DNA of 54,272 bases from a virus (Duplodnaviria; Caudoviricetes), in the IMG/VR virus record IMGVR_UViG_3300037502_000299, positions 1 through 54,272 of that record; one strand, given 5' to 3'. A program made the position numbers and the translations under genes. Shown here piece after piece: positions 41,501 through 54,272 of this stretch. How positions within the stretch are numbered: position 1 is the stretch's first letter; each line of letters begins with the position of its first letter. The notes under the pieces were generated by a model that searched no databases, was not told the DNA's origin, and was given only the letters and a program-made list of their open reading frames with translations.

Positions 41501-42540
41501 AAATAGCTACAGATGACTCCCGTAGGTGGACTAGAAATGCTAGAATTTATTTAGGTTATGATACTAATACTCATAAAGATATAATGGGTAATATACCATG
41601 GGGTTTTGGTCCTAATGCATTTATGGCTTTTGGAGCACAAGTAGCAGCATATACTTCAGGTGAAGGAGTACAATTAAAAGACTTTGCTGTTAATACTCTT
41701 CATATTGCAATGGACTCTTATCTTCCTATTCCTACAACAGGTATTGATCCAGTAGAAAATACTACAGCGTTTCTTGTTGATTTAATAACACCAAGCGTAG
41801 GCAAGCCATTTATTGAATTTGCTATGAATAAAAACTCATTAGATATGCAAATTTATAGGAGTAATTATAGTAGGTATTCATCCGCTTATGCTGGTAGTGA
41901 TGTTGTGCCTAAATATTTTAAAGACGCATCTGAAACATTATTTGATGCTACCAATGGTAAAGTAGTATTATCGCCAGATCAAATGTATTTCTATGCTAAT
42001 AATTTTGCTGATGGATTAACTAAAATAGCAGAGAGTTTATATGGCGGAATAGCTGTGTTAAAAGGTGAGAAGTATTTTGATCCTGAAAAAGACCTATTTG
42101 TTTTAGATAGTTTCTTGTCTACTACTTCTAATCTTGATGCTAGACGATTCGATGTTTTAAGGAACAATATAGAACGTAAATCTAAAGTATTAGAAGATAT
42201 GAAGCTACGTAATCCAAATCAAGCATACACATTTGCTACAGTAACTAACCCTCATTTAGATGTAAAAATAAAAGTTTTAAACTACTTTGATAATAAAGCA
42301 TTAAAGCCATTAGATACGGCGGCTAATCAAATTAGAAATAATCCTTTGCTTACATCTAAAGAAAAAACTGATCTTTTATATAGAAACAAACTAGAAAAGA
42401 ATCATGTAAAAAAAGGTGTATATGACACTATAAAATCACTAGATGATTTAGGTGAAGATAGAATTAATGTTTTATTAGAAATGATTGATCAGGATGAAGC
42501 AGCGATGGACTTACGCAACGCGCCAGACTCTAACCCCTAG
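35503..42540 (+). CDS. Giant polyvalent/ejection protein with zincin metallopeptidase motif
   Basis: 2345 aa; G.FNP..TITI..LVHETLH..EFLAE zincin signature; C-terminal region with FFGASAVG and IPWGFG resembling LPD38-type domains. Confidence 0.7.
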   Translation: MALIDELRAKYPDRYRTMTDKEVADQLYNAHYATEMPKITFYKQLGVDVPESSYAEIIARDIPLAGAQGTVGLYEAAKGLTGYIPFTKGKIPKAIESAEKSVLGGTSSDLQQYLESLKSEGQQMVSQGAAEIQPTGNIIQDTIAQLQYAGQNPQQIPQIIAQSLPSTYGGALVGRGITKTAGRFGKDVSPITAAASGEGTIAAGAGLESIRQQTEDREVTGGQQAIAAFSGYMTNRLGRLGAKAAKYLDAGDIDVIWTQGTTGVTSAANQKAQSKLLAGLKSALSESVFEELPQSAQEQISQNVALGRPWDEGVAEQMAGGIIGGAGAGFGFGAYNQYKINKAIEDMPPPGDITAEPPGTDIEVPKTDTKKNAQTRKELLDSIEDEETRKSLEELLGKKGQPSGTQQTTAGTSDAISGRSTDGTAGGVKKPVGGGVAGAATDELTDKTGEARSDVALENITTNDVGKPFPTIGQAHKFRRDNKLQDLYSVKELDDGTIALVPKIPVTEQQPPVTKTKKPAVTKEPEVAAEETEEDIADEEIGWEKFEETKPDGTMTTGYRRKQTTAKTPKSTEVLKTAAELTEADKADLDQEESDEDAASQARINEANENGFDDLPDYVKTGSKLAAKSPVVQANESNPNADTTVKKQEARRLAVKHAAFDQAMDEFDTVSIEDFDARLKELSDEKKAETGKEYSINKPLEFIKGLTQAQRFSNYYKEFNKFLGTKQLKPRRIKQATTREDFLKTLSKEERKLFNRAYSSYITTQVKTMKSGVGSVDETESNVDALYRKLQAEIELVKKKKGSQAKVDKYKAQYLAERQKLQKVSQSRQVVEKDTSALFDRVANLEQAIKDGENEIKSIKAAKKIKDKAVQIKGVQTQINKDRAELKRAKAELDIAQKTTTVLGAPGRYTNIADEDTRAAEIVAKENKKNEIKETGTPEEVAEVLDEETEEEAKKIIASDKEKAQAKAEEKAKKQPKITVVGKLNMIVSKSITQGKNAIEILSDLYDSKNKEKARSYQRTALLFSEVLDKLKKKGYALPKVVFGPVPNDRPGMFNPETNTITINDTSEVEYGRVLVHETLHYLLDHIVEEYQKNPNSNLLSPSQKAYLGALVESYNYAIPKLGEQFKGMEFKEFLAEAVEGMQFSIELGKLKPMPGRVLPFLRQLARDIAGMLGFRLEHNLPAVDKGAPAQAYILEAVLNDIESILTGEDYVAPNPLFRSGDVSFARKIDLSDDAEEASKVERTFDELVDNDKSTMLERGIKTSIQKTVELFSSGQNFIDEMATLFSNERFVLERIQENMDRAGSISYADDSFNNFYDYISTAFGKAQWYLKQKIENPRKTYIRTLANFANAKGVSNSKAATILKYYQIAFHAPERRMTKWLMNVPLEKLNKVKFRSSLFGTVNDTPANIRERIFDTISSDVIAKLDEPQRKYIADSLRNDLIRLVNSKGAITETGYSPAGYKKTNMTEADYNVIEDLNFNDEQACKSKYMAESTEMKTLVQQFFASKKQLLDATIELNRMSGYWSTATDAIVEFYGWKNYSPFKVRPGDKAASKLNIEGTALGNTGKGFTGGRFEGSSADVENPVHQVLVEAAQSAARAGADGLMRSIINAVNQGYLKGHMVDAKGMPRKKAEINKPTYTFQERFTGKVDEALLKRPDILYSYNKDGSMDLVRITDPKQLEAIRRTYAINNEGIINSVTQFLNKGTSLMGQGHTRLNPGFGPYNFVRDLLTNAGIVSMKENPVLGARIISSVATELIAKRGLAKSARFSFLFHNNKIDDIKKLADKDQFYQSLIEYGENGGNVSVVQGLSAASAMEQLSKQLDKSLTLKNRDDVLKYFDMYNSMFEFGARVAVYRVMKRHFQNQMAKELNVPPSQVEKAAIQKAVAYTKNLANFEERGLATKQLGTYFMFFGASAVGARQALKALSPAWRKYEAVANTLPEVDQKDPVKMAKFKKRFMYQKHMSRLVAAAMIGMGYSIWHLMHMMAGDDDDLDQEGRNKIATDDSRRWTRNARIYLGYDTNTHKDIMGNIPWGFGPNAFMAFGAQVAAYTSGEGVQLKDFAVNTLHIAMDSYLPIPTTGIDPVENTTAFLVDLITPSVGKPFIEFAMNKNSLDMQIYRSNYSRYSSAYAGSDVVPKYFKDASETLFDATNGKVVLSPDQMYFYANNFADGLTKIAESLYGGIAVLKGEKYFDPEKDLFVLDSFLSTTSNLDARRFDVLRNNIERKSKVLEDMKLRNPNQAYTFATVTNPHLDVKIKVLNYFDNKALKPLDTAANQIRNNPLLTSKEKTDLLYRNKLEKNHVKKGVYDTIKSLDDLGEDRINVLLEMIDQDEAAMDLRNAPDSNP

Positions 42541-42711
42541 ATGTTTGTCTTTGCTGGTTATAAAAACTTTTACTTGTACTTTAGCCCTTTTAGCACCACA
42601 CTCAACGGCATAAACCATTTCTGCAGTATTTAAAGTAGGTATAAAAAAACTATCCCCAACGTCCATATGTTCGAAGGGGAATAGCCACGTAGGTTCACTA
42701 TGCTGATCCAG
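42511..42711 (-). CDS. Small conserved-type phage protein (FPF..MDVGDSFF..GVRVWR); not in ORF track; probable CTG start
   Basis: Open frame (L)DQHSEPTWLFPFEHMDVGDSFFIPT..HLGVRVWRVA*; AAGGAG lies upstream of CTG 42711; alternative ATG at 42666. Confidence 0.7.
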   Translation of the reverse strand: MDQHSEPTWLFPFEHMDVGDSFFIPTLNTAEMVYAVECGAKRAKVQVKVFITSKDKHLGVRVWRVA

Positions 42712-45622
42712 AAATCTCTCCTTTTACTTTATCTAATATATCTTTCTTTTGAAATGCGTAGCACATTAGATTATATTCAGAACTACTTGCATCTTTCCAA
42801 CCTGTCAGCATGCGTTTTTTTTCTTCCCAGAATTTAATATCTGAATTAGCAATACGTTTTTTAAAGTCGCTCTTATTAATATCCAATTCAGCAATTAGAT
42901 AGTTATTAAATATACTTCTTGGTATATAGATAGTGCCTGTATCGTCTTCTGCTCTGATAACTAATGGTGTTCTAGGTTCATCTGCAACCTTACCATCTCT
43001 CATAACTAAAGTGCCAGAGTGGTTCTTAATTAAAAACTCTGTAAGAATATTCTCATAGTCGATAGTATTAAACTGGATAACATTGTTCTTGATGTTTAGC
43101 ATCTCTGTAACCAACCTAGTATATAATTTTTCTACATTACAATTATCTAATATGCCATATTCAAGAGCTAGTTCACCACAACCTAAAGGTAAGGCAATCA
43201 AGTTATGATAGTATCTATCACCTGGGTCAGTACCATAATCTGCTACAAATCTGTCTACCCATTTCTGAAAACGTGGTCCTAGCTTATGGTCGTCCTCCAT
43301 ACTGTATAGCCTAATTACTTCACCTTTGTTTTCTATATCAAATAAAGCTTGTATAAATTTAGGGCCAGAGTGACCATAGTTTAATTTAAATGTTTCAAAC
43401 ACTCGTTTACCATAGTTTAAATCTGTTTGTAGTATCTTAGGTTGACCTAACATAAATTCTATAATACGAGCAACCTCACCGTTAGGGTCATGTTTCAATG
43501 CGGATAACTTATCGTATATAGATTTATTAGATGTAAACAAAGCAATCATACTAGCTGAAGCTTCAAAATCTCGTTCTGCATTAACGGATGCTTGCATTCT
43601 AATTTTAGGTTTACCAGTAGAAATCATATGAGATAATTCTGATATATCTTCAGGGTCTAAGTTAGTTACCTCATCGTGTGCATACGTCATATTATGTAGG
43701 GTGCTAATTCTTCCTTTTAAGGCATTGAATGTACCGCCTTTTTTAGCATGAACATATAATACTTTAGGGTTACCCCATATACTTACAGCTGAAAATAATG
43801 CTCCTGTTTTAGCCGCACCTGTATCACCTGTTAAACAAACAATAGCACCATCTGTATTAGTGTAAGCCATAAGAGGAGATGCAAAACCACATAACATAGC
43901 ATATTGATGTAGTTCCATACCAGGCGCATCTAGTTGATTAGCAGCTTTCTTCCAATCTTCAAACGTACCTTTTGGTGTCATATGCCTACCAATCTTATCT
44001 GTAATGGCGGAGAAAGGTATTTTAGTTTCACTACCATCTCTTTTATATTCTCTATCACCTATAACAAAAGATGTTCTATCATCATCAGTCCAACCTAATT
44101 GATTTCTAATAATGTCTGCCTCCATCTCATTAGACATGACAGTACCCCATTTAATTATATAATCCATAACTGTTACTACCTCGTGCTTTCTTAAATAAAT
44201 ACCATTATTGGCTAAATGTGATGCTGTTTTAATTGGTTCATAAGCTAACCTAATTGGGAATAAAAACTCTACTGGTTTATCTTTAGGAAATGTGCATCTT
44301 ATTAATAGGCAATCACCATCTGCTGGATTTTTAAGTCTTTGTCTTGGTTTAAAATTATAGCTTGATACTTCAGTTGGTTCTTGTTCTATGTATTGTTGTG
44401 TTTCTTCATTCCATACAGGAAGTTCTTTTTTATAAATGCCACCATTAGCCCCGTGAATATATGGAAACATATTAGGTGGTAAGAAAAAAACTTCTTCAGT
44501 AGCTAGTGCAGTAGTAGAATTTTGAGTTATTACTTCACCTATTTTTTCTTCTACAGGTACAGGTGTCATTTTAAATACTTTACCTAGTTTAAGGGGGTTA
44601 GTAATCCTACCTCTATGTGGGCAACCATTACAACCACCTGGATTAGCATTGTCAAAAGAATTACAGGAATGGACGCCATCAAACGAAGCCGCCTTTAATA
44701 TCGTAGCTTCACGGTTATAGTTTTTAGCCCCTTCTGATAAGGTATGTATTGCAGTTTCAGCATCTACGCAACGACTAGCTACGGTTAGTCCAGCAGTCCA
44801 TAGTTCATAACTAACGTCATCAGGATGCTCCATCATGTGTTTAATCTGATTACATCCAGTGCCTGCAATACTTTCTTTTAGTATCTTATCGAAGCTAGCT
44901 TCCCAGTTATCTAGTCCATGCATTCTTCTTTCTTCTTCAGTTAATCCTTTGAATGCAGACTTTAATATATCTTCAGTAGATTGTGTTTCTTCGCCTAGAA
45001 ATTGTTTAAACTCTTCAAAGACGTAGACAGGTAATTCATCGCTAATTACTTTTGTTGGTGATGGGGGATTAGTTTTATAGTTAAGGCAGTTAGGTGCGCG
45101 AGTTACACGACCTTTATCAGCTGTTACTGATGGGTCTATTTTAAAGCCTTTATCTAGGCATAGCTTTTTAAATTTCTCAGCATATGTTTTCCATTCTTCA
45201 ATAGGAATATCAGCATCAAATGCCCACCACGCCCATATACCTCGGCCAGAGTCTAGTCTAATAGGTGGGGGTAAATTAACATCTTCAATAAATTTATCTA
45301 TTGCATTGTTAGCTTCTTCTTTAGATAGATACTTTTTATTATTTTTTTCCTCATCAGGTACATTATCTTGAGGGTCTACGTCTAAATCAACAAATAAAGA
45401 CCTAGAATATAAAGCATTATCTTTTCTTGAATAACCTTTTTGAGAACTATGTGTGACATATATATTGTCTCCATCTTGTTTTAATTCATTTATTTTAGGT
45501 TCTATTTCATCTATTGATTCTACATAATAATTAGTTGTTTTGCCTGTAAGAGATATAGTTGCTATACAATACACCCCTTGAGATGGCAATACTTTCTTAT
45601 AAAATTCCGTTGTGCCTATCAT
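42698..45622 (-). CDS. Primase-helicase (AEP/RepB-like N-terminus, Cys cluster, DUF927-type helicase); start moved to ATG 45622
   Basis: FVDLDVD and DSGRG motifs; C..F..CNGCPH cluster; QLGW..FVIGD; Walker A-like GDTGAAKT and HDEVT. Confidence 0.8.
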   Translation of the reverse strand: MIGTTEFYKKVLPSQGVYCIATISLTGKTTNYYVESIDEIEPKINELKQDGDNIYVTHSSQKGYSRKDNALYSRSLFVDLDVDPQDNVPDEEKNNKKYLSKEEANNAIDKFIEDVNLPPPIRLDSGRGIWAWWAFDADIPIEEWKTYAEKFKKLCLDKGFKIDPSVTADKGRVTRAPNCLNYKTNPPSPTKVISDELPVYVFEEFKQFLGEETQSTEDILKSAFKGLTEEERRMHGLDNWEASFDKILKESIAGTGCNQIKHMMEHPDDVSYELWTAGLTVASRCVDAETAIHTLSEGAKNYNREATILKAASFDGVHSCNSFDNANPGGCNGCPHRGRITNPLKLGKVFKMTPVPVEEKIGEVITQNSTTALATEEVFFLPPNMFPYIHGANGGIYKKELPVWNEETQQYIEQEPTEVSSYNFKPRQRLKNPADGDCLLIRCTFPKDKPVEFLFPIRLAYEPIKTASHLANNGIYLRKHEVVTVMDYIIKWGTVMSNEMEADIIRNQLGWTDDDRTSFVIGDREYKRDGSETKIPFSAITDKIGRHMTPKGTFEDWKKAANQLDAPGMELHQYAMLCGFASPLMAYTNTDGAIVCLTGDTGAAKTGALFSAVSIWGNPKVLYVHAKKGGTFNALKGRISTLHNMTYAHDEVTNLDPEDISELSHMISTGKPKIRMQASVNAERDFEASASMIALFTSNKSIYDKLSALKHDPNGEVARIIEFMLGQPKILQTDLNYGKRVFETFKLNYGHSGPKFIQALFDIENKGEVIRLYSMEDDHKLGPRFQKWVDRFVADYGTDPGDRYYHNLIALPLGCGELALEYGILDNCNVEKLYTRLVTEMLNIKNNVIQFNTIDYENILTEFLIKNHSGTLVMRDGKVADEPRTPLVIRAEDDTGTIYIPRSIFNNYLIAELDINKSDFKKRIANSDIKFWEEKKRMLTGWKDASSSEYNLMCYAFQKKDILDKVKGEISGSA

Positions 45623-45715
45623 GTTTATTCTTTCTATTTTTAGAGACAACACTGCCCCACCACACCAAACGTGTGTTTTTAAAATAACTACCGAGAAATT
45701 CTATTTTACTACTTT

Positions 45716-46027
45716 TTAAATCTTATTGCTTACGTTATACTCTAAATATTTTTTAGCATCGAGAAGAGTACTTACAGGTAAATCCCCCTCATGTAGCCCT
45801 TCTCTAACCAATACCATAAAGTTTTCAATACGCGTACAATTTTTATCTCTAATAGCCTTGCCTCTAAACCAACTATGAATAGTCATTCTTGATACCCCAA
45901 AAACTTCTGCCACATATTGCGCAGGTAGGTTAGCTTTGACACATAGTTTTGCCAATCTTACACCCAATCTTTTTGAGTCAAGATCAGATAGAGCCATTAA
46001 ATATCCTTTACTATATGGTCTTGCCAT
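45716..46027 (-). CDS. Cro/XRE-like HTH DNA-binding protein
   Basis: AQYVAEVFGVSRMTIHSWFRG helix-turn-helix. Confidence 0.75.
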   Translation of the reverse strand: MARPYSKGYLMALSDLDSKRLGVRLAKLCVKANLPAQYVAEVFGVSRMTIHSWFRGKAIRDKNCTRIENFMVLVREGLHEGDLPVSTLLDAKKYLEYNVSNKI

Positions 46028-46036
46028 TTATTTCCC

Positions 46037-46909
46037 CTATGTTTTAACTGACCATTTTTTCATTACATCATTAGCATTGTTTACTACTTGTGGTTTAGCT
46101 TCTTCAGTACTTCTTAATACTGGCTCGTCCACTACATCTGCTACTGGCGTACTTGCAACTTGTGTTGTAACAACTTCTTCACTTGTTGAGTCAGTTTGAT
46201 ATACGGTTAATTTAACAGCACCCTCTGCGGCGGCAGATTTACTTTGTCTTTGTAACACTTCTAAGTCATTAGCATTAACAGCAGCTGCTGGACTAAATAA
46301 AACTTTAGGTGTAGAAGCTTTAGCATCAAATTGCATGCGAGTTACTACACGACCAGCACTAACATTATTGTTAGCTAATAATTGAACATAAGGTCTGAAT
46401 GGATACTTACCGCCTTCTTCCTTACCGAAACATGATGTAGCAGGTAAAACTAATTGCATAACATCGCCAGCAGGGTCGTTAGGTAATACAACAGCCATTC
46501 TCCATGATAGACGACATGCAGTCCCTGTGCCATTAGCCCCTGAATTTTTAGCACTAAATTGACAAGTATCGCATGTTTTAGATTGTGGTGTTTTTACATC
46601 AATATCAGGTACACGAGAATCACTAGACCAACATGTAGGACTAATCTTCTCACCTTCCTTATATGATTGTGCGTAGAATGTTCTTGATGCAGTATGTGCC
46701 ATCTTAACAATTACAACGTCCATGTAATTATTTTCTGAAACACTTACTTCTTTACCACCAACTACTTTTCTAAATGCTTTACCACGAATTGAAATACGTT
46801 TGTTACCTTGATTTATGGCACCACCAGCAACGGCTAAGGTATCTTCATCTAGCCCTGTTTGGATTAATGCACCACTATTTTGTAATATTACTGATAATTC
46901 ATTACTCAT
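46037..46909 (-). CDS. Putative ssDNA-binding/replication accessory protein; start at ATG 46909
   Basis: RISIRG..F, PTCWS.D, C..C..AC cysteines and low-complexity tail; located in replication module; GGAG RBS. Confidence 0.5.
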   Translation of the reverse strand: MSNELSVILQNSGALIQTGLDEDTLAVAGGAINQGNKRISIRGKAFRKVVGGKEVSVSENNYMDVVIVKMAHTASRTFYAQSYKEGEKISPTCWSSDSRVPDIDVKTPQSKTCDTCQFSAKNSGANGTGTACRLSWRMAVVLPNDPAGDVMQLVLPATSCFGKEEGGKYPFRPYVQLLANNNVSAGRVVTRMQFDAKASTPKVLFSPAAAVNANDLEVLQRQSKSAAAEGAVKLTVYQTDSTSEEVVTTQVASTPVADVVDEPVLRSTEEAKPQVVNNANDVMKKWSVKT

Positions 46910-46920
46910 TATATTCTCCA

Positions 46921-47331
46921 CTAAATTGACTTGCTTGTTGGTTTGCGTACAGTTATTTTAAATTCTCGCATAGTGCTGATACCGGGAGGAAGACCATCCT
47001 CTGAACGAGAACTCATAAACTCTTTAAAATTATTCTGACTTATACGTTGTTGCAAGAGGTCTAGTGCGTTGTTTTCCACAACGAATTGCTTAAAGTTGTC
47101 CCAATCGCTACAAACAAAATCTTCTTTTAAAGACTTAATGATAGTCCCACTCCCTGTACGAATGCTATCAGCATTTATTTCATTGCAGGCTAACATCATA
47201 GCCCGTTCCAATTCTTCTAAGTCTGCTTTTAATTCAGCATCCTTTAATTCAAATTGGTTCTTAAGTGTATTCCTCTCTGTTCTAATTGTCAAGTATGTTG
47301 TTACTAAATCATCTAATTTCATATCACTCAT
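46921..47331 (-). CDS. Conserved-type replication-module protein
   Basis: Coiled coil, SIRT..GT, DW..F..FV..LLQQRI..PPGI pattern. Confidence 0.6.
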   Translation of the reverse strand: MSDMKLDDLVTTYLTIRTERNTLKNQFELKDAELKADLEELERAMMLACNEINADSIRTGSGTIIKSLKEDFVCSDWDNFKQFVVENNALDLLQQRISQNNFKEFMSSRSEDGLPPGISTMREFKITVRKPTSKSI

Positions 47332-48893
47332 GTTTCTATTTCCTCTCTATAAAGATCAACTAATTTACTATGCATATCTACTTTGTTTTGTAGCATATCA
47401 TACATTCTCCTTTCAATATCTGAACCTTGTAAATGAACTACTGTCATTTTATTTTTCTGACCAACTCTATCCATACGGGCAATACATTGTAGATATGTTT
47501 CGACTGATAACACTGGAGACCAAAACACTACTGTGTCTGCCGCAGTAAGAGTTACACCATGCGATGCCGCTTGAGGTTGAATAACTAATACACGAGGGTC
47601 ATACATGTTTTGAAATCTAGATATAATTGCAGAGCGTTCGGTAGCCGATACTTGTCCGTTAATTATTTCATTAGTGATGCCATGTGCATCAAGATACTTA
47701 GATACTACTTGAATGGTATGTCTATATGGCACGAAAATAATTGTTTTGTTTTCTGTCTCGTCTAGCACCTCTTGTAATGCATTTAGACGTGGACTAATAT
47801 CAAATTCAATAACATCTTTATTATCCGTATACACTGCCCCACCAGAAATTTGTAGTAGTTTGTTAAGGTTAGCCGCCGCGTTAACCGCAGTTACTTGTTC
47901 TCCAGCCGCACTGATTAGCCATTCTTTTTTTAATTCACTATAATATTTATGCACTTGGGCTGTTAGTGGAACTTCTCTTGTCTGATACATAACGTCGGGT
48001 AAGTCAAGACAATCTTTTTTAGCATATCGTATAGCAGGTTTTAATGCTTTAAATACTTCATCTTTTGCGTTCGTCTTTGGTAGCCACTTAAATCTAGATA
48101 CTTGATACATAACTTTATCTCGCCATCCTGCCGTCACCTTAGGAACTCTTTGAGGACACACTAATCTAGCTAATCCATATGCATCTACTGGGGACTGTGA
48201 AGCTGGGGTTCCTGTTAACATCCATAATCTAGTTGATGGTTTTAATATTTTAGCTAAAGTTTTCCATCGGGAAGTTGTAATAGTTTTATAAGCATTAGCT
48301 TCGTCTATTACAATTAAATCAAACTCGGCTTTAGATATAGCATCTCTGACTACATTTACGCCATCATAATTTATGATTACAAATTCATATTCACCATTAA
48401 TTATTTTTGTTCTTTTCTCTGCGGTGCCATGTGCTACTGCTACAGTTCTATGCATGCAAGTATTAAAGACATCGCCTTGCCATGCTGAATACATAATAGA
48501 TAAAGGACATATGATAAGAACACGTTTTATTTTGCCTTGCTTCATAAGATAATCAGCCGCCCAAAGTACTGACGAGGTTTTGCCTGTGCCTGCTTCATTA
48601 AAACAAAAAGCACGATGATTAATTGATAAGAATTCGGAAGTTACACGTTGATGGTCGAAAGGTTCATATAACCCTGGCCAATTATAATCTCTTGTGATAG
48701 GGGACGGTAAATTGTTTCTAAATGATACTAGTTGGTTTAGCCGAGTCATTTCATCCAGCCCCCAGTATACTAGCACTTCGGAGAGATTGCCTCTCTGTTC
48801 TAATACTTCGCTTTTTTCTATGTTATTAATTATGCTATCTACTATGTGAGTAGGAGCAACAAATTTTACTGCTGAATTTTCTATAATTTCCAT
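47328..48893 (-). CDS. SNF2-family (SF2) helicase
   Basis: EAGTGKT, IVIDEA, LTGTP, HGVTLT and QCIARMDRVGQ motifs. Confidence 0.9.
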   Translation of the reverse strand: MEIIENSAVKFVAPTHIVDSIINNIEKSEVLEQRGNLSEVLVYWGLDEMTRLNQLVSFRNNLPSPITRDYNWPGLYEPFDHQRVTSEFLSINHRAFCFNEAGTGKTSSVLWAADYLMKQGKIKRVLIICPLSIMYSAWQGDVFNTCMHRTVAVAHGTAEKRTKIINGEYEFVIINYDGVNVVRDAISKAEFDLIVIDEANAYKTITTSRWKTLAKILKPSTRLWMLTGTPASQSPVDAYGLARLVCPQRVPKVTAGWRDKVMYQVSRFKWLPKTNAKDEVFKALKPAIRYAKKDCLDLPDVMYQTREVPLTAQVHKYYSELKKEWLISAAGEQVTAVNAAANLNKLLQISGGAVYTDNKDVIEFDISPRLNALQEVLDETENKTIIFVPYRHTIQVVSKYLDAHGITNEIINGQVSATERSAIISRFQNMYDPRVLVIQPQAASHGVTLTAADTVVFWSPVLSVETYLQCIARMDRVGQKNKMTVVHLQGSDIERRMYDMLQNKVDMHSKLVDLYREEIET

Positions 48894-48944
48894 ACTATCC
48901 TTTAACTAAGTCTCACCGAGACTTCTAAATATTACTAACTGACT

Positions 48945-48972
48945 AGTCTACTACACTAAACTTATATGTCAA
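48945..48972 (-). promoter_or_regulatory. Sigma70 promoter upstream of the helicase operon
   Basis: Minus-strand TTGACA (48972-48967), 16 nt, TAGACT (48950-48945); downstream inverted repeat at 48908-48924. Confidence 0.6.
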
Positions 48973-48975
48973 GTA

Positions 48976-49287
48976 TTATTTTTTACGTTCTTTTTTACTA
49001 ACTTCGGAAATTAAATTACCTTGAGAATCTCTTTTGAATGAACGGTTTTTAGACGCACTTTGAATACGTAATCCGTTCTTATTTGAACCGCCTTTGTCAA
49101 GTGCTTTTACATGAGCAACGTCTTTACCTTCTCGCATATCAGCCTTGCCATTACCATTTAAATCCTTACCTTTTTTATCGATAGAACGACGACCACGCTG
49201 ACGTTCCATACGACGTTCGTGTTCACCACGAGCTTTTTGTTGCTCGTATTCTTTCTTATAGGGTCTTGGTTTATTAACGTAAGGCAT
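48976..49287 (-). CDS. Small HNH-like protein
   Basis: GKDVAHVKALDKGGSN..SKNRS beta-beta-alpha pattern. Confidence 0.65.
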   Translation of the reverse strand: MPYVNKPRPYKKEYEQQKARGEHERRMERQRGRRSIDKKGKDLNGNGKADMREGKDVAHVKALDKGGSNKNGLRIQSASKNRSFKRDSQGNLISEVSKKERKK

Positions 49288-49293
49288 GGCTAT

Positions 49294-49299
49294 ATTATA
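49294..49299 (-). promoter_or_regulatory. -10 box for probable leaderless transcription
   Basis: TATAAT 6 nt upstream of ATG 49287. Confidence 0.4.
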
Positions 49300-49301
49300 T
49301 C

Positions 49302-49961
49302 TTAAGTCTTATTAAAATCACAGCTTTTTACAGGACAGTATCCACATAGAGGGGTAGGGTTTGGTTGCCATGTATTTGAAATATATGAGTTATCTAATCT
49401 TAAAAGTGTTCCTAAAAACTGCCCCCAATACTTGTCTATGTCTTGTCGTTTATATTCTTCGGGGATAAATTGGTTATGAGCTAAGAATAATAATCCTGCT
49501 TTAACTTTATTTATCTGCGGAAAATGGGCAAACGTCATTAGTGCCATAAGTTTTAATTGTTTAGGGTCGGGATACTTATTACTTCCCGTTTTATAATCTA
49601 CAATAAATGCAGTGTCACCATCAATAATAAGTAAGTCACAAATACCACGCACCCAACGGTCAGAACTCTCAAACTCGCAAGGCGTTTTTTCTTTTGTAAG
49701 TGCCATTTCATGTTCACAATATTTTTCTCCTGGAATTGCGATTAAATTATCTACTAACTCTTTATATCGCTCATAATTTTTAGCTAGTGCAGTATTACTT
49801 CTTACATAATCTTCGAGTGCTTTATGCACCTCTTTACCATATATAGTTTGTGGAGTGTCTTGAGAAATGTAGTTTTTAGCTACTCGAATTTCGTAGTATT
49901 TTTTAGGACAGTTTTGATATTCTTTAAGGGAAGAATAAGACCATGTAAAATCACTCATCAA
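49302..49961 (-). CDS. PD-(D/E)XK Cas4-like/RecB-type exonuclease
   Basis: SYSS..CP, RGICDL, IVDYKTG, QL, C-terminal CGYC..C (four-Cys arrangement). Confidence 0.88.
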   Translation of the reverse strand: MMSDFTWSYSSLKEYQNCPKKYYEIRVAKNYISQDTPQTIYGKEVHKALEDYVRSNTALAKNYERYKELVDNLIAIPGEKYCEHEMALTKEKTPCEFESSDRWVRGICDLLIIDGDTAFIVDYKTGSNKYPDPKQLKLMALMTFAHFPQINKVKAGLLFLAHNQFIPEEYKRQDIDKYWGQFLGTLLRLDNSYISNTWQPNPTPLCGYCPVKSCDFNKT

Positions 49962-50472
49962 TAAATTTGTTACTCTTTCTGTTGTTTAAACTACCTTGTA
50001 TAACTTGTAGATTTTCGGGAACATGTAACCCCGATACGTTTTTACCCTGTAATGGAATAATATGGTCAACATGCCACTGAATACCTGTTACTTTAGTTAA
50101 AGATGATGCCAACACATACATAGCCTTTATTTGTAATTTATTTTCTTCAGTTAACCATATAGGTAATCTTTGTTTTCTTACAGTATATCTTTTATTAGTA
50201 TGAAAATTTATTATACCTTTATTTCTACTTCGCCATTCTTTATCTCTAGCATACTTTTTTTCTTTTATCTTTTCAAAATTTTGATGATACCAAGCTAAAG
50301 TTCTAGCATTTTCTTTGTCTTTATTATTTTCTCTATATTTTTTACTATATTCCCTATTATATGCGTTTCTTTTAGCTTTATTTTTTTCTCTGTATTCTTT
50401 AAATGCTTTTTTATGTTCTTGATAATAACGTTTTCCAGCTTCTTTTTTATCTTCAGAGTTACTGTAAGGCAT
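49951..50472 (-). CDS. Free-standing HNH homing endonuclease
   Basis: HVDHIIPLQG..VSGLHVPENLQ..N.RKSN; basic helical N-terminus. Confidence 0.85.
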   Translation of the reverse strand: MPYSNSEDKKEAGKRYYQEHKKAFKEYREKNKAKRNAYNREYSKKYRENNKDKENARTLAWYHQNFEKIKEKKYARDKEWRSRNKGIINFHTNKRYTVRKQRLPIWLTEENKLQIKAMYVLASSLTKVTGIQWHVDHIIPLQGKNVSGLHVPENLQVIQGSLNNRKSNKFIDE

Positions 50473-50474
50473 TA

Positions 50475-50732
50475 TTAATCTTTCTTTTGCACTTCGCCTG
50501 TCGATTTATTTAATTCGTATTCTGCTAATGCTTTATATATTTCCTCATCCTCTTTGATACTTTCTTCTAAGGCTTTTACAACCTCAGGATTCTCTAACAT
50601 TTTCTCTACCATTTCTTCATGAGGTATAGGTTTTTTCTTTCTAAATATAGCATCAAAGTTTTTTTCAAACATTTCACTATTAGGTTTAGATTGTATCCAA
50701 TCTCCAGTCACATCATTTTTAGCAGTCGCCAT
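50475..50732 (-). CDS. Hypothetical protein; start at ATG 50732
   Basis: MATAKNDVTGD..NFDAIFRKK; GGAG upstream; overlaps end of polA. Confidence 0.6.
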   Translation of the reverse strand: MATAKNDVTGDWIQSKPNSEMFEKNFDAIFRKKKPIPHEEMVEKMLENPEVVKALEESIKEDEEIYKALAEYELNKSTGEVQKKD

Positions 50733-52587
50733 AACTTTCTCCATATTTAGCTTCACATGCAACGGGTAGTCCTTCCGCCCATGTAGGTGGTGTTGACATT
50801 ATATCAGTAATAAATTTCATAGCGGTATCTATTTCTTCTTTAGAAACAACATTAACTATAGCATCATGCACGGTTAAAACGGGTCTATACTTTTCACTTA
50901 TATGTAGCATTTGTTCGCCTACAATAATTCTAGCCAATGCCTGCACTACGTTTTCGACTACCGAACCGCCCCATATAGTGATGTCACCTCTTCTAGACTT
51001 ATAAACAAACTTAGTCTTACCATCTATTTTTTCTTGCCGTAAGTTCGGATAATAAATGTATAGTCCATTTGGTAGTTTAATCCCGGCTGCGGAAACTTCT
51101 AAACATTTATGTCGTCCAAGATAATATGGCTTCATAGTAGGTGACCAATTAGCCATATCTTTTAATGCTTTATCACATTCTTCCCATAATTTAATTACTT
51201 TATCATTAACTTCACGATAAACCTTAACAAGTCTTTGGCATTCTAAGTCATCTAATACTGCACATGGCGGTTGAGTCTTTAATGTATGTTGTAGCTTTGC
51301 CCACCCTGTCCCATACCCTAGACCTAACGTGCATGTCTTACCAACGAATCGTTCAGTTGCATCAGCTTTAGTAATAGTCCTACCGTATACCTTTGAAGCG
51401 AATTCGGAATACACATCTCGACCATCTTTATACCACTCTACTATATCGTCTTGTCCTGCTAACCATACAAGAACCCTAGCTTCAATTTGTGATGAGTCAC
51501 AGTTAATAACTAATGAGCCTCTTGGTGCTATAACTGCATTTTTAAGGGCTTTCTTTTTCATATCTCGTGAGGGTAAATTTTGAAAGTTTACTTTGTCTGA
51601 GCCTGCCCATCGCCCTGTGTGAGCGCCATAATACTTAAGTGGGATAGGTAATTTGCCTTTGTTACGAGAGCCAATATCTAAGAATCTTTTAATCCTTGAC
51701 TCTTCTATGGTTGATTTAGTGCCTAGACGAACAGCACATAGTTCTTGTATGAATGGGTCTTCATGTTCAGTTAATGCAATAAAGCCTTCATCATTTTTAG
51801 CTAACGCAAATGTTTCTTTGTCTGTCGCTGGAGATATTTTTAACGGAACCTCAACATTATGTTCTTCTAATAGTTCCGCAAATTGTTTATTAGATGCTAA
51901 CTTTTTACGAACGCACTCTTCATCTTCGCATTCAAGCCTAACCATTAAATTGCCTAGCAACTCTTTCTTTTCCGTCTCGACCTCATCTAGTCTATCAGAT
52001 AACAAAGCATCATCAAGACACAATACAGGCTCCATATACATACGAAGTGTTAAGTCTATTAATTTTAGTTCATTTGTAGGAAAGTTTTGGGATAGTATAT
52101 TATATAATTTATAGGTAAGTTCAACATCGTTCTTACAATACTCACCGTATTTTTCTAGTTCGTCTTTGGTAAACTCTTGTAACCGTTTACCTTTAGCATT
52201 TATTACTTCAGTGCCTTTTTTACCTAGATTATACCGTTCAACAAGATACGCAAGAGAGCCACCCACATCCACACCATGCTTAGCACGAGCCATGCCAAGA
52301 GTATCAAGATAAATAGCTGGAATAATGTTGAAAATAAACGAGAGAATAGCCCCATCGAATTGTGTATTATGGCAAAGTAAGATGGCTTCGTTCCAATCAA
52401 TCTCCACAAGTCTACTTTTAATATAGTTATGTGTGCCTGTAATCCATTTAGTTTCTTGGTCGTCAATCTTAATACCCACTCCAATAACTTGAAATCTTTC
52501 ATCGCGTATGTATTCCTCTGTGGTTAAATTAGATAGACTAAATCCAGTATCGTAGAATGTTTCAAAATCTAGTGTGATAAATTTCAT
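50719..52587 (-). CDS. polA: Family A DNA polymerase with 3'-5' exonuclease; start moved to ATG 52587
   Basis: ExoI LDFET, HNTQFD, YCKND; HTGRW; motif A DSSQIEAR; motif B K..TLGLGYG; motif C VHDA. Confidence 0.93.
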   Translation of the reverse strand: MKFITLDFETFYDTGFSLSNLTTEEYIRDERFQVIGVGIKIDDQETKWITGTHNYIKSRLVEIDWNEAILLCHNTQFDGAILSFIFNIIPAIYLDTLGMARAKHGVDVGGSLAYLVERYNLGKKGTEVINAKGKRLQEFTKDELEKYGEYCKNDVELTYKLYNILSQNFPTNELKLIDLTLRMYMEPVLCLDDALLSDRLDEVETEKKELLGNLMVRLECEDEECVRKKLASNKQFAELLEEHNVEVPLKISPATDKETFALAKNDEGFIALTEHEDPFIQELCAVRLGTKSTIEESRIKRFLDIGSRNKGKLPIPLKYYGAHTGRWAGSDKVNFQNLPSRDMKKKALKNAVIAPRGSLVINCDSSQIEARVLVWLAGQDDIVEWYKDGRDVYSEFASKVYGRTITKADATERFVGKTCTLGLGYGTGWAKLQHTLKTQPPCAVLDDLECQRLVKVYREVNDKVIKLWEECDKALKDMANWSPTMKPYYLGRHKCLEVSAAGIKLPNGLYIYYPNLRQEKIDGKTKFVYKSRRGDITIWGGSVVENVVQALARIIVGEQMLHISEKYRPVLTVHDAIVNVVSKEEIDTAMKFITDIMSTPPTWAEGLPVACEAKYGESYGDC

Positions 52588-52603
52588 ATTGACCTTAATT
52601 AGT

Positions 52604-52693
52604 GCTATCTTATGCAAACGACAGATAGCGGTGCCGTCCTAACTTATGACTAGGATGTATGAGTAAACCTAGTCATCTCACTTGCATTGTGAG
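52604..52693 (-). ncRNA. Candidate multi-pseudoknot structured RNA in the polA leader
   Basis: Three perfect stems plus loop-loop complementarity ATGCAA/TTGCAT and ACGGC/GTCGT. Confidence 0.5.
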
Positions 52694-52703
52694 GGATGTT
52701 TGG

Positions 52704-52778
52704 TGGGCTACTAGCGGTTTATATAAGTGCAAAAATACCATCACGAATTTAAACATATAAATAAAGTGCTTTCGCCCA
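52704..52778 (-). ncRNA. Candidate RNA with loop-E/bulged-G motif
   Basis: UGGGC-GAA-AGC ... GCU-AGUA-GCCCA with inner UUUAUAU/AUAUAAA stem. Confidence 0.45.
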
Positions 52779-52784
52779 TAACTC

Positions 52785-53024
52785 TTAGAGTGTTGATAAT
52801 AATAACAAAACAATTACCACTATGGCAAACATTATTTTTTCGTTTCGTTTTTCATATTTATCTGTATGGTCGGGTTTGTAACTTCCACCCCATGCTTCTT
52901 TTGCACTGCGTGGTGTAGAAGTATCTATACTGTCAGGCTGAAAAAATCTCCAACCTTTTTTTGCGTTCTTAGCAAATATTTTAATTTGCCAGTCTTCTAA
53001 GCTTTGTAAATTTGTGTGTTTCAC
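52785..53024 (-). CDS. Small protein with C-terminal TM helix; probable GTG start at 53024
   Basis: AGGAG precedes GTG 53024; ends IMFAIVVIVLLLLSTL. Confidence 0.6.
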   Translation of the reverse strand: MKHTNLQSLEDWQIKIFAKNAKKGWRFFQPDSIDTSTPRSAKEAWGGSYKPDHTDKYEKRNEKIMFAIVVIVLLLLSTL

Positions 53025-53046
53025 AATTTTTCTCCTCTTAGGTTTA

Positions 53047-53241
53047 TTATTTTGCGTATTTCTCAAATTCATTACGGCACTCGGTAGAACACCAACGGCG
53101 GTCATCTTTGACTGGGTCTTCACACCATATACATTTCCCTGTTTGATTAGAAGGTTTTTTGATTTTATCTTTGGCATTTCTTACCCCCATGTCAATCATG
53201 TGTTGCATTAAATCATTGGCTACGTCAGCATCATCACTCAT
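53047..53241 (-). CDS. TraR/DksA-like C4 zinc-finger protein
   Basis: N-terminal MSDDADVA (compare F TraR MSDEADEA) and CIWC..WCSTEC. Confidence 0.6.
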   Translation of the reverse strand: MSDDADVANDLMQHMIDMGVRNAKDKIKKPSNQTGKCIWCEDPVKDDRRWCSTECRNEFEKYAK

Positions 53242-53243
53242 AT

Positions 53244-53510
53244 TTATTTATGCCTTCTTGCTCCTCTTGAGTTTACTTTGGAAGTCATATAGGTAGGCAC
53301 TTGAATTGCGTCTTTCTTTTTTAGTTTATAAAATTGATGTTTAGTAATTCCAAAATAATCTAGCACATCTTGTCGCACTAACGGTTTCTTTTCTTCAAAA
53401 TATTGGTTGATTTTTTTGGCAAGTTCTGCTTCTTCTACGGACAATATTCTTTCTTGTTCTAATCTAGAATGGTGCTGAGCCGTATAATTTAGTAAATTCA
53501 TCATAGTCAA
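53244..53510 (-). CDS. Hypothetical protein, possible HTH
   Basis: RQDVLDYFGITKHQFYKL resembles an HTH; exact start uncertain. Confidence 0.5.
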   Translation of the reverse strand: MTMMNLLNYTAQHHSRLEQERILSVEEAELAKKINQYFEEKKPLVRQDVLDYFGITKHQFYKLKKKDAIQVPTYMTSKVNSRGARRHK

Positions 53511-53655
53511 ATTCTTTCATAATTTCTTTAGGTAGTTTTATTACTTTAGCATGCGGGTTGTTATCTGTAAACCATTTTGCTTCCTTGACAGACCATCTAT
53601 GTTTGCGTATGACTTCACCTTCATCATCTACGATTGCATAACTAAATGGAATCAT
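53464..53655 (-). CDS. Hypothetical protein
   Basis: ATGA-coupled to the upstream small ORF. Confidence 0.6.
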   Translation of the reverse strand: MIPFSYAIVDDEGEVIRKHRWSVKEAKWFTDNNPHAKVIKLPKEIMKEFDYDEFTKLYGSAPF

Positions 53656-53783
53656 TTCTTTTGTTCTTCCTGCGTTTGTTCTACTTTAGGTTTATCCAAT
53701 TCAAAATCTCTTTTAAGGTTATCTTTATGCACACCAAACCATACGGCTATGTAAATCGCAGTTAGAATTGCTATTGCATCCAT
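53652..53783 (-). CDS. 43-aa membrane-anchored protein (not in ORF track)
   Basis: MDAIAILTAIYIAVWFGVHKDNLKRDFELDKPKVEQTQEEQKK*; AGGAG upstream; fills the gap between neighbours exactly. Confidence 0.65.
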   Translation of the reverse strand: MDAIAILTAIYIAVWFGVHKDNLKRDFELDKPKVEQTQEEQKK

Positions 53784-53784
53784 G

Positions 53785-53991
53785 TTAAAAACTCCTTTGT
53801 TCAAAACATTCTAAGTGTGACTTCACATAAAAGTTAGGTCTAATTTCTTCATATAATTCACCTTGTATACATTTTAAATTCATACTGTATTTCTTTTGCA
53901 CATGAATGGATTGCATCACTGCCCATGTTAAACAGCACCCAATAATAAATCCTACTACTGCAAATCCTGTGCCTTCATATTTATTATTCAT
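53785..53991 (-). CDS. Small membrane protein
   Basis: N-terminal TM GFAVVGFIIGCCLTWAVM; TAATG coupling; AGGAG RBS. Confidence 0.6.
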   Translation of the reverse strand: MNNKYEGTGFAVVGFIIGCCLTWAVMQSIHVQKKYSMNLKCIQGELYEEIRPNFYVKSHLECFEQRSF

Positions 53992-54230
53992 TACACTCTC
54001 CTTGTTAAATAAGTTCTACTTACTCGACACATCTTATTACCTTTAATTACATTAATTACATTACATTTAATCGTTGGTTTATTTTGCGATATTAGATATT
54101 GTTCACCTACTACTTGCACGCCCGCTTGAGTGGCTACACTTGTAGCAAGGGATACACACCCTAAATTAATGACCAATGTTAGCATCAATAAGACGCTTGG
54201 TAGCTTCTTTATAACTTTTAACGCCGTCAT
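53991..54230 (-). CDS. Possible lipoprotein
   Basis: Basic N-terminus, hydrophobic stretch and NLGC lipobox-like motif; start uncertain. Confidence 0.45.
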   Translation of the reverse strand: MTALKVIKKLPSVLLMLTLVINLGCVSLATSVATQAGVQVVGEQYLISQNKPTIKCNVINVIKGNKMCRVSRTYLTRRV

Positions 54231-54270
54231 GTTTTTCAGCTTTCTCTTCACATTTATATAAAGGGGTTAA
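54166..54270 (-). CDS. 3' end of a gene truncated by the window edge
   Basis: Open frame ..LTPLYKCEEKAEKHDGVKSYKEATKRLIDANIGH* running from the window end. Confidence 0.4.
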   Translation of the reverse strand, partial: LTPLYKCEEKAEKHDGVKSYKEATKRLIDANIGH

Positions 54271-54272
54271 GA

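Follow-up and report, generated by a model that had tools for sequence, protein, structure and literature searches.

Covariation points to a pseudoknotted leader RNA family upstream of polA and primase-helicase genes in uncultured lake phages

Only a few model phages are known to control their replication genes through folded leader RNAs, and the short intergenic region preceding the DNA polymerase gene of the uncultured virus analyzed here raises the question of whether its transcript belongs among them. Specifically, an earlier note, made from the sequence alone, had claimed that some 90 nucleotides (nt) directly upstream of polA form a compact, strand-specific RNA with a kissing loop and an H-type pseudoknot, unassigned to any family, ribozyme-like or regulatory, and controlling polymerase expression. 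This segment, referred to below as element B or module B, was followed up in the window, by which is meant the whole stretch of DNA analyzed (54,272 nt of an IMG/VR virus record estimated to be 86% complete), and in related loci. Positions are those of the window except where another locus is named.

Structural genes occupy the plus strand of the window, and a minus-strand block of early and replication genes starts at its right end. Along the minus strand this block consists of small open reading frames (ORFs), an intergenic region containing element B, polA, nucleases, an SNF2-type helicase, and a DUF927 primase-helicase (Table 1). The ORF caller extends polA by 10 codons to an in-frame TTG at 52617, giving a protein of 632 aa, and this TTG (52612-52617, minus strand) sits within the P3 loop of element B. 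Since homologues begin at the ATG at 52587, and since the SD-like AAGG fits it, this ATG is, as judged from the sequence, the true polA start. By polA, the nearest cultured phages are Pseudomonas phage KPP25 (35% identity) and some Rhizobium phages, and a blastn search with 1 kb around element B returned no match among 50,697 phage records. Farther upstream, a sigma-70-like site (52799-52828, minus strand; TTGCCA, 18 nt, and TATTAT with an upstream TG; 10 of 12 matches) overlaps the last codons of the upstream ORF; were this site active, module A, described below, would be the 5' end of the transcript. Two further ORFs of the window are recorded here for their own sake. One, of 2345 aa (35503-42540, plus strand), carries the large-polyvalent-protein domain LPD38 (3.4e-11), is convergent with the replication block, and has homologues of approximately 2400 aa in relatives that lack B. 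The other, of 136 aa (46921-47331, minus strand), matches a PHROG annotated 'minor head protein' (1.2e-24) and lies within the replication block, an odd location for a head protein.

Table 1. Positions in the window of module B, its parts, and its neighbors.
Feature	Position	Strand	Basis or remark
polA, family A DNA polymerase with 3'-5' exonuclease (proofreading) domain, 622 aa	50719-52587	-	PF00476 1.2e-30; PF01612 4.4e-07; phrog_17 2.7e-77
A/U-rich unstructured leader, 16 nt to the polA ATG, with SD-like AAGG (52596-52593)	52588-52603	-	sequence
Module B, whole pseudoknotted leader RNA, about 90 nt	52604-52693	-	sequence and covariance model R1
P3 3' strand, AGAUAGC	52604-52610	-	covariation
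Kissing strand UUGCAU, following GUCGU in the P3 loop; complement of P1-loop AUGCAA	52612-52617	-	covariation
PK1 3' strand GUCGU, first part of the P3 loop	52618-52622	-	covariation and RNAalifold
P3 5' strand GCUAUCU, pairs with 52610-52604	52623-52629	-	double changes at two pairs
PK1 5' strand ACGGC, pairs with 52622-52618, one G.U	52633-52637	-	covariation
P2 hairpin, 9 bp (52676-52668 / 52654-52646), 13-nt loop	52646-52676	-	MFE hairpin in 44 of 47 distinct copies
P1 hairpin, 5-bp stem CUCAC 52693-52689 / GUGAG 52681-52677	52677-52693	-	all 5 pairs covary
P1 loop AAUGCAA, 7 nt	52682-52688	-	sequence
Module A, conserved cassette directly 5' of B	52700-52783	-	72 distinct copies; RNAalifold on 42
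Upstream ORF, 130 aa, stop codon 8 nt 5' of module A	52785-53177	-	without family match

When read along the minus strand, B consists of P1, P2, an 8-nt linker, ACGGC, ACC, GCUAUCU, GUCGU, UUGCAU, a single A, and AGAUAGC. Together, PK1 and P3 form an H-type pseudoknot, and a kiss of six pairs joins the P1 loop to the P3 loop. The helices that the earlier note had drawn (P1, P2, PK1, P3, and the kiss) are all present where it had placed them on the minus strand, and the distance that it had put at about 16 nt between the end of the element and the polA ATG is exactly 16 nt, the ATG lying at 52587. When folded without its pseudoknots, the window copy reaches a nested minimum free energy (MFE) of -28.2 kcal/mol (z = -2.39), and 6 of 200 shuffled sequences fold equally well. 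Taken alone, the window sequence is thus mildly unusual, and the strong evidence is comparative.

The search for relatives took several routes. Among 42 polA-related viral loci with upstream sequence, 4 contain the whole intergenic element, 4 contain module A only, and 34 contain neither; in the last of these groups polA abuts the upstream ORF. A scan of viral sequences with a pattern of the core identified 31 copies in 26 loci, and a looser pattern produced 20 further loci, among which only L072 and L088 are real members; the other 18 were rejected as chance matches in G+C-rich coding DNA. A covariance model (R1) was built from 29 distinct copies with a structure consisting of P1 and P3 only. 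This model confirmed B copies in 29 of the 33 metagenome loci found by pattern, added divergent copies in three loci (L136, L172, and L111), and in the window has a single match, at 52600-52695 (95.7 bits, E 7.6e-18). The final model-based alignment (A2) holds 54 copies, 47 of them distinct, from viral and metagenome contigs. In 185,579 bacterial and archaeal species, represented by one genome each, a scan with the fixed pattern, which divergent copies would escape, gave four matches, none of which was confirmed by the model; a prokaryote genome match (L197; 22 bits, E 0.045, 64% G+C) was treated as chance.

Across the 47 distinct copies, the four alignable helices (P1, the kiss, PK1, and P3) are paired in 98.0% of cells as compared to 93.0% after shuffling, with 0 of 500 shuffles as high, and sliding the partners by 1-3 columns of the alignment drops pairing to 28-46%. 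Every one of these helices, the kiss and PK1 included, displays compensatory or wobble-to-Watson-Crick changes. Firstly, P1 has double changes at all five pairs. Secondly, the first pair of the kiss, A-U in 43 copies, is replaced by G-C in 3, with 0 mismatches, and the remaining five pairs are invariant. Additionally, individual pairs of PK1 alternate between C-G (43) and U-A (4), G.U (36) and G-C (11), and C-G (46) and U.G (1), the terminal A-U being unpaired in 9 of 47 copies, and pairs of P3 alternate between G-C (44) and A-U (3) and among U-A (37), U.G (8), and C-G (2). As PK1 and the kiss lie outside the structure given to the model, the alignment was not fitted to them. An independent run of RNAalifold on the same alignment recovered both P1 and the PK1 helix. 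P2 is too divergent in sequence and length to be aligned, and is recognized as a hairpin by MFE (Table 1); its compensatory changes are visible even among close relatives of the window copy. Strand specificity, which the earlier note had argued from its G-U pair, is likewise borne out, as the many G.U cells found across the 47 copies would be A.C on the plus strand, so that the fold belongs to the polA-sense transcript.

Taken together, covariation in 47 distinct copies upholds the description of a structured RNA with a kissing loop and an H-type pseudoknot, and the homologue and covariation check that had been proposed for it has returned dozens of homologues with compensatory changes in uncultured lake phages. 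By this comparative evidence, B is a real folded RNA family, so far without a name, and of the general kind phage leader RNA. The absence of a family assignment holds as well: a scan of 52300-53100 against Rfam 15 at E up to 10 yielded five sub-threshold chance matches, the best being snoR17 with 22.9 bits against a cut-off of 60, and no Rfam 15 family reached its gathering score.

Conservation within B is unevenly distributed. The 34-nt core, extending from PK1 through the end of P3, is nearly invariant, although the polA genes of the host phages are 66-96% identical, and the P1 stem and P2 vary freely. The P1 loop reads AAUGCAA in 43 of 47 copies and AGUGCAA in 3, and is missing in 1. Among unpaired bases, the A preceding the kiss strand is invariant, the PK1-P3 junction is A-CC in 42 of 47 copies, and the A after the kiss is present in 41 of 47. 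Tandem copies occur in which the kiss is altered to GUGCAA/UUGCAC together with an altered P3; this G-C form of the kiss is found in the upstream members of tandem pairs, and also in L111, whose PK1 is unlike that of those upstream copies and which is without P2. The altered kiss and P3 would block cross-pairing between tandem copies, which argues that each copy must fold alone. Minimal natural forms include L068b and L111, both without P2, and a locus (L215:2300-2338, plus strand) that consists of PK1 and P3 only, with no P1 or P2, and lies after an HTH gene and before a primase-helicase gene.

Sequence content of the P2 region is also distinctive. CUCC or CCUC occurs there in 31 of 47 copies as compared to 10.0 +/- 2.7 in shuffled sequences, and in 8 of 16 crude P2 types as compared to 8-11% of genome windows; the P2 of the window itself (loop 52655-52667) contains neither. 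The enrichment is real, and the motif resembles an anti-Shine-Dalgarno sequence. Pairing of the P2 loop with the SD was considered and rejected: the stretch complementary to a given leader spans just 3-6 nt, and no co-variation was visible by eye.

All copies of B are found in the sense orientation as intergenic leaders. Of the 47 distinct copies, 35 precede polA, 7 precede a 949-aa primase-helicase, and 5 precede another module or an ORF of other kind. An ORF is directly abutted by 40 copies, with 16-35 nt between P3 and the AUG; this AUG and the purines resembling an SD sit in A/U-rich sequence that the fold does not include. In the 7 copies without an adjoining start codon, the next element is module A, the G+C-rich module C, or a second B. 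Four complete genomes, recognized by their terminal repeats, contain exactly one B each (4 of 4). Five relatives are without B, among them a complete genome with a polA that shares 90% identity with that of the window; as B is absent from complete relatives, it is an optional and modular element. Of 22 sequencing runs, the four labelled as RNA consist of assembled contigs, three of these runs being probably DNA, and many of the sequences belong to relatives at under 95% identity; among them, a joint from 52539 to 52699 (X19, in two contigs) merely matches relatives that have module A and no B. In a comparison of the ORFs of five B-bearing and three B-free near-complete genomes, grouped in 1371 clusters, none was present in 5 of 5 of the former and 0 of 3 of the latter, which argues against a dedicated phage partner gene for B; three clusters were found at 4 of 5 versus 0 of 3, two of them structural-module ORFs and one a set of small overlapping ORFs.

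B is accompanied by two further modules. Module A is closed by the pairs GGGC (52777-52774) and GCCC (52708-52705) around an internal loop of GAAA and UAGUA, and contains an A/T-rich interior, a conserved GAUGGUAUUU block, and ACCAA at its end; it also stands alone before polA or primase in many relatives. Its flanks co-vary modestly (GAGC/GCUC in 3, GAGU/ACUC in 1, GGGU/ACCC in 2, wobbles in 5, and C.A mismatches in 3), and across the family they enclose GAAA opposite (G/U)AGUA, an internal loop that we take to be a loop-E or sarcin-ricin signature. RNAalifold and single-sequence folds both give a long A/U-rich hairpin, and the region also holds -10-like boxes; module A may therefore be an RNA hairpin, a promoter, or both. 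A Bacteroidota-type promoter was considered for module A and set aside, as the spacing of the conserved blocks varies and other genes here have good SDs. Module C, of approximately 120-200 nt, G+C-rich and structured, was observed at L236:3242-3443, L048:9282-9480, and L068:7689-7811 (minus strand). In some relatives it sits between B and the next gene or module; its single-sequence folds reach -49 to -55 kcal/mol, and an Rfam scan of these three loci yielded nothing but one chance match elsewhere.

The three modules share the manner in which they end. Each of A, B, and C finishes in a stem followed by ACCAA, and in L236 module C has the closing arrangement of module A (GAGG-GAAA ... AAGUA-CCUC-ACCAA). 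ACCAAUU is repeated on both sides of B (52700-52704 and 52600-52603 on the minus strand of the window, and in related loci), loci with module A only read ...GCCC-ACCAAUU-AAAAGG, and the modules vary in order and number within the intergenic space. The presence of ACCAA(UU) at module ends suggests that the cassettes A, B, and C were joined and shuffled by recombination at a short ACCAAUU repeat, and the neighboring A and C modules suggest a hot spot of structured-RNA cassette shuffling.

What, then, might B do? The explanation tentatively preferred here, which falls somewhat short of an even chance, is that B is a cis-acting leader module whose near-invariant core docks a conserved trans factor beside an unstructured ribosome-binding site (RBS). 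B would be transcribed within the leader of the first downstream replication gene, polA here and the primase-helicase gene in some relatives; P1, the variable P2, and the PK1-P3 pseudoknot would fold, and the leftover loop bases would kiss the P1 loop to produce a single compact body. As the core is almost invariant and the P1 stem and P2 drift, the core can be read as a sequence-specific docking surface. Its likeliest partner would be a host translation or RNA-decay protein, or a core phage replication protein. Such a factor would dock 16-35 nt 5' of the AUG, next to the A/U-rich RBS, and binding or folding would set the amount of replication enzyme via 30S access or mRNA lifetime, by analogy with the T4 gene 32 operator. 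Beyond the fold, strand, position, and optional, modular nature described above, we infer regulation by B, its level of action, and its partner.

Several observations bear on this docking model in opposite directions. That no B was confirmed in bacterial genomes by the pattern scan fits a phage-specific use better than a widespread metabolite sensor. Against the model is the finding that close relatives manage without B. The 7 of 47 copies that do not abut a start codon fit a position-independent action better than an RBS operator, and, as the regulated gene differs between genomes, simple autoregulation of polA cannot be general. The position of B makes the earlier proposal, control of polymerase expression, a plausible one; B also precedes the primase-helicase and is absent from close relatives. 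The non-abutting copies, the lack of a co-occurring gene, and the differing target also keep alive two of the rival readings considered below, namely a role in RNA processing or stability and one in transcription antitermination.

An alternative that appears unlikely, and that nevertheless merits attention, is that B serves as sensor in a class of riboswitches confined to phages (a new small ribozyme being less likely), in which the core would be an aptamer for a small molecule, such as a nucleotide-derived signal of the infected cell, and ligand binding would change expression of the replication gene. In small H-type pseudoknot aptamers, near-invariant paired bases and variable peripheral stems are typical, and B displays just such invariant pairs and variable periphery; tandem copies exist, and no B-specific protein gene was found. 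An expression platform is not evident, however, since the fold, which ends with P3, leaves out the SD-like purines farther downstream, and no terminator separates B from the AUG. Furthermore, Rfam models of small pseudoknot riboswitches (preQ1, SAM-II/V, SAM/SAH, fluoride, guanidine-III) give no match, nor does any other riboswitch model, and B was found in one phage clade, with the 185,579 prokaryote species negative by the pattern scan. Were this reading true, the phage would time synthesis of its DNA polymerase or primase by that signal, with a sharper response where tandem copies carry orthogonal kissing loops.

Rather unlikely as well is that B serves as a processing or stability module, a rigid body that blocks or directs a host RNase and thereby insulates the polA message from upstream RNA; candidate activities include RNase E scanning, a 5' exonuclease, RNase P, and RNase III. 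That A, B, and C are autonomous cassettes in varying intergenic order agrees with this proposal, which position independence also fits. Similarly, stacking of the 7-bp P3, whose first pair is G-C, on the 5-bp PK1 would build a helix of 12 bp with A-CCA or A-CUA after it, presumably resembling an acceptor/T-arm minihelix. A mere roadblock, though, would need no invariant sequence. A tRNA-like or RNase P substrate was specifically considered and rejected: P3 is followed by ACCA in just 11 of 47 copies, by ACUA in 18, and by other tails in 18, and ARAGORN finds no tRNA-like gene in the window.

Nascent B might also bind host RNA polymerase and promote read-through of terminators in the replication operon, in the manner of the put and EAR RNAs, an improbable account in our estimation. 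B is similar to these in size and belongs to a leader that opens the replication block or lies close to its start, its distance to the gene varies, its core is invariant, and it has no dedicated phage partner. Counting against antitermination, a simple scan of 42000-54272, blind to Rho-dependent sites, predicted no minus-strand terminator-like site, and in a complete genome (G001) a single gene of the block, the last one, follows B.

More doubtful still is a reading in which B acts as a start-codon decoy: UUGCAU would have two alternative partners, AUGCAA of the P1 loop and the same sequence at the ORF start, and P1 would decide on masking. The P1 loop AAUGCAA does equal the context, (A/U)AUGCAA, in which most of the downstream polA and primase genes start, and 30 of the 40 ORF-abutting copies precede an AUGCAA start (MQ.. 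in both polA and primase), with complementarity of up to 8 nt in primase leaders; the pseudoknot half that occurs alone, without P1 and P2 (L215), likewise precedes a primase gene starting with AUGCAA. The polA of the window, however, starts with AUGAAA, which creates an internal mismatch, and in L111 the kiss is changed to UUGCAC while the start is still AUGCAA. B also occurs beside other modules, and approximately 15 of the 34 B-free polA relatives start with ATGCAA as well, so that the match may be inherited rather than selected.

Very unlikely is a new self-cleaving ribozyme that would cut the polycistronic transcript ahead of polA, and the ribozyme-like character suggested in the earlier note finds no support. 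The compact double-pseudoknot fold of B, its invariant core, few invariant unpaired bases, and phage intergenic location would suit such a molecule, but hammerhead, twister, twister-sister, pistol, hatchet, HDV-like, and glmS models, and all other Rfam models, give no match at E up to 10, and no feature points to cleavage. B is moreover tied to the leaders of two genes and not scattered, and its helix order, as we take it, does not fit the pistol or HDV consensus. Finally, that B acts as DNA, as a promoter, an origin, or a single-strand hairpin site, is suggested by its place next to A/T-rich module A, where the replication genes begin, and is highly improbable given that the pseudoknot and kissing pairs covary and that G.U pairs are valid on one strand, unlike in duplex DNA sites.

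Whichever of these readings applies, B is a ready test object, small enough for probing, crystallography, or cryo-EM, and one that offers natural minimal variants (some without P2, one without P1 and P2) as well as orthogonal tandem copies. If its partner proved to be a metabolite or a factor of the host, B would reveal how these lake phages tune their polymerase supply; were it a simple stabilizer, it would still be a new insulating part.

In the available portions of the literature, including PMC10690425, PMC5737381, PMC2864571, and 10.64898/2026.09.22.753630, no such leader RNA of polA or primase genes is described. The main text of PMC10690425 contains 0 occurrences of the word 'polymerase'; its supplementary tables list approximately 8,500 IMG/VR candidates, 879 of them just upstream of genes, and the B motif may already be among these, without a name. 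Among characterized systems, the closest in arrangement to the model preferred here is T4 gene 32, whose product gp32 regulates the translation of its own message by way of a 5' pseudoknot that, according to the available text, has no Rfam model (PMC10690425). Like the gene 32 leader, B belongs to a phage replication gene and places a 5' pseudoknot ahead of an unstructured A/U-rich RBS stretch, here of 16-35 nt. [quoted passage not shown]

Two classes of RNA share part of the topology of B. In the pistol ribozyme, the loop of a 5' hairpin forms a pseudoknot of approximately 6 bp with a loop enclosed by a later helix, and the 5' hairpin loop of B pairs in the same manner. Described in an abstract as having three stems and a pseudoknot, pistol otherwise differs from B, which does not match its model, has PK1 in place of the inner P3 hairpin, a different order, and an extra P2, and contains no evident cleavage-site motif. 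In the rep leader of IncI-alpha and IncB plasmids, a hairpin loop pairs with a distal single strand and controls translation of the replication gene. The hairpin loop of B similarly pairs distally, upstream of a replication gene; in the plasmids, unlike in B, the distal strand adjoins the RBS, and control involves a leader peptide as well as an antisense RNA, neither of which was seen for B.

The EAR RNA of Bacillus, a cis-acting leader RNA, is grouped with HK022 put. The put RNAs, as far as the available text describes them, are approximately 70 nt long, consist of two stem-loops downstream of early promoters, function without any phage protein, and bind the zinc-binding domain of beta' (PMC9378689). 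By analogy, B may be likened to HK022 put as a phage leader RNA in the range of 70-100 nt that is sequence-specific and for which no phage-encoded partner was found. Unlike B, which has two hairpins plus a pseudoknot, HK022 put consists of a V-shaped pair of stem-loops that includes a triplex and lacks a pseudoknot; downstream of B no terminators are predicted, and binding of B to RNA polymerase is putative.

With respect to its surroundings, B invites comparison with the PeSLs of T4-type phages, described in the available text as short conserved regulatory cassettes at gene boundaries that undergo insertion, deletion, and shuffling (PMC2839356, PMC4122927). PeSLs combine a promoter with terminator stem-loops and flank variable genes, unlike B, which is a pseudoknot without terminator features or flanking variable genes and is present in one copy per genome; here, the cassettes themselves appear to shuffle. 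As in the shuffling of PeSLs, modules A, B, and C vary in order and number; the three modules here are joined at a repeated ACCAAUU.
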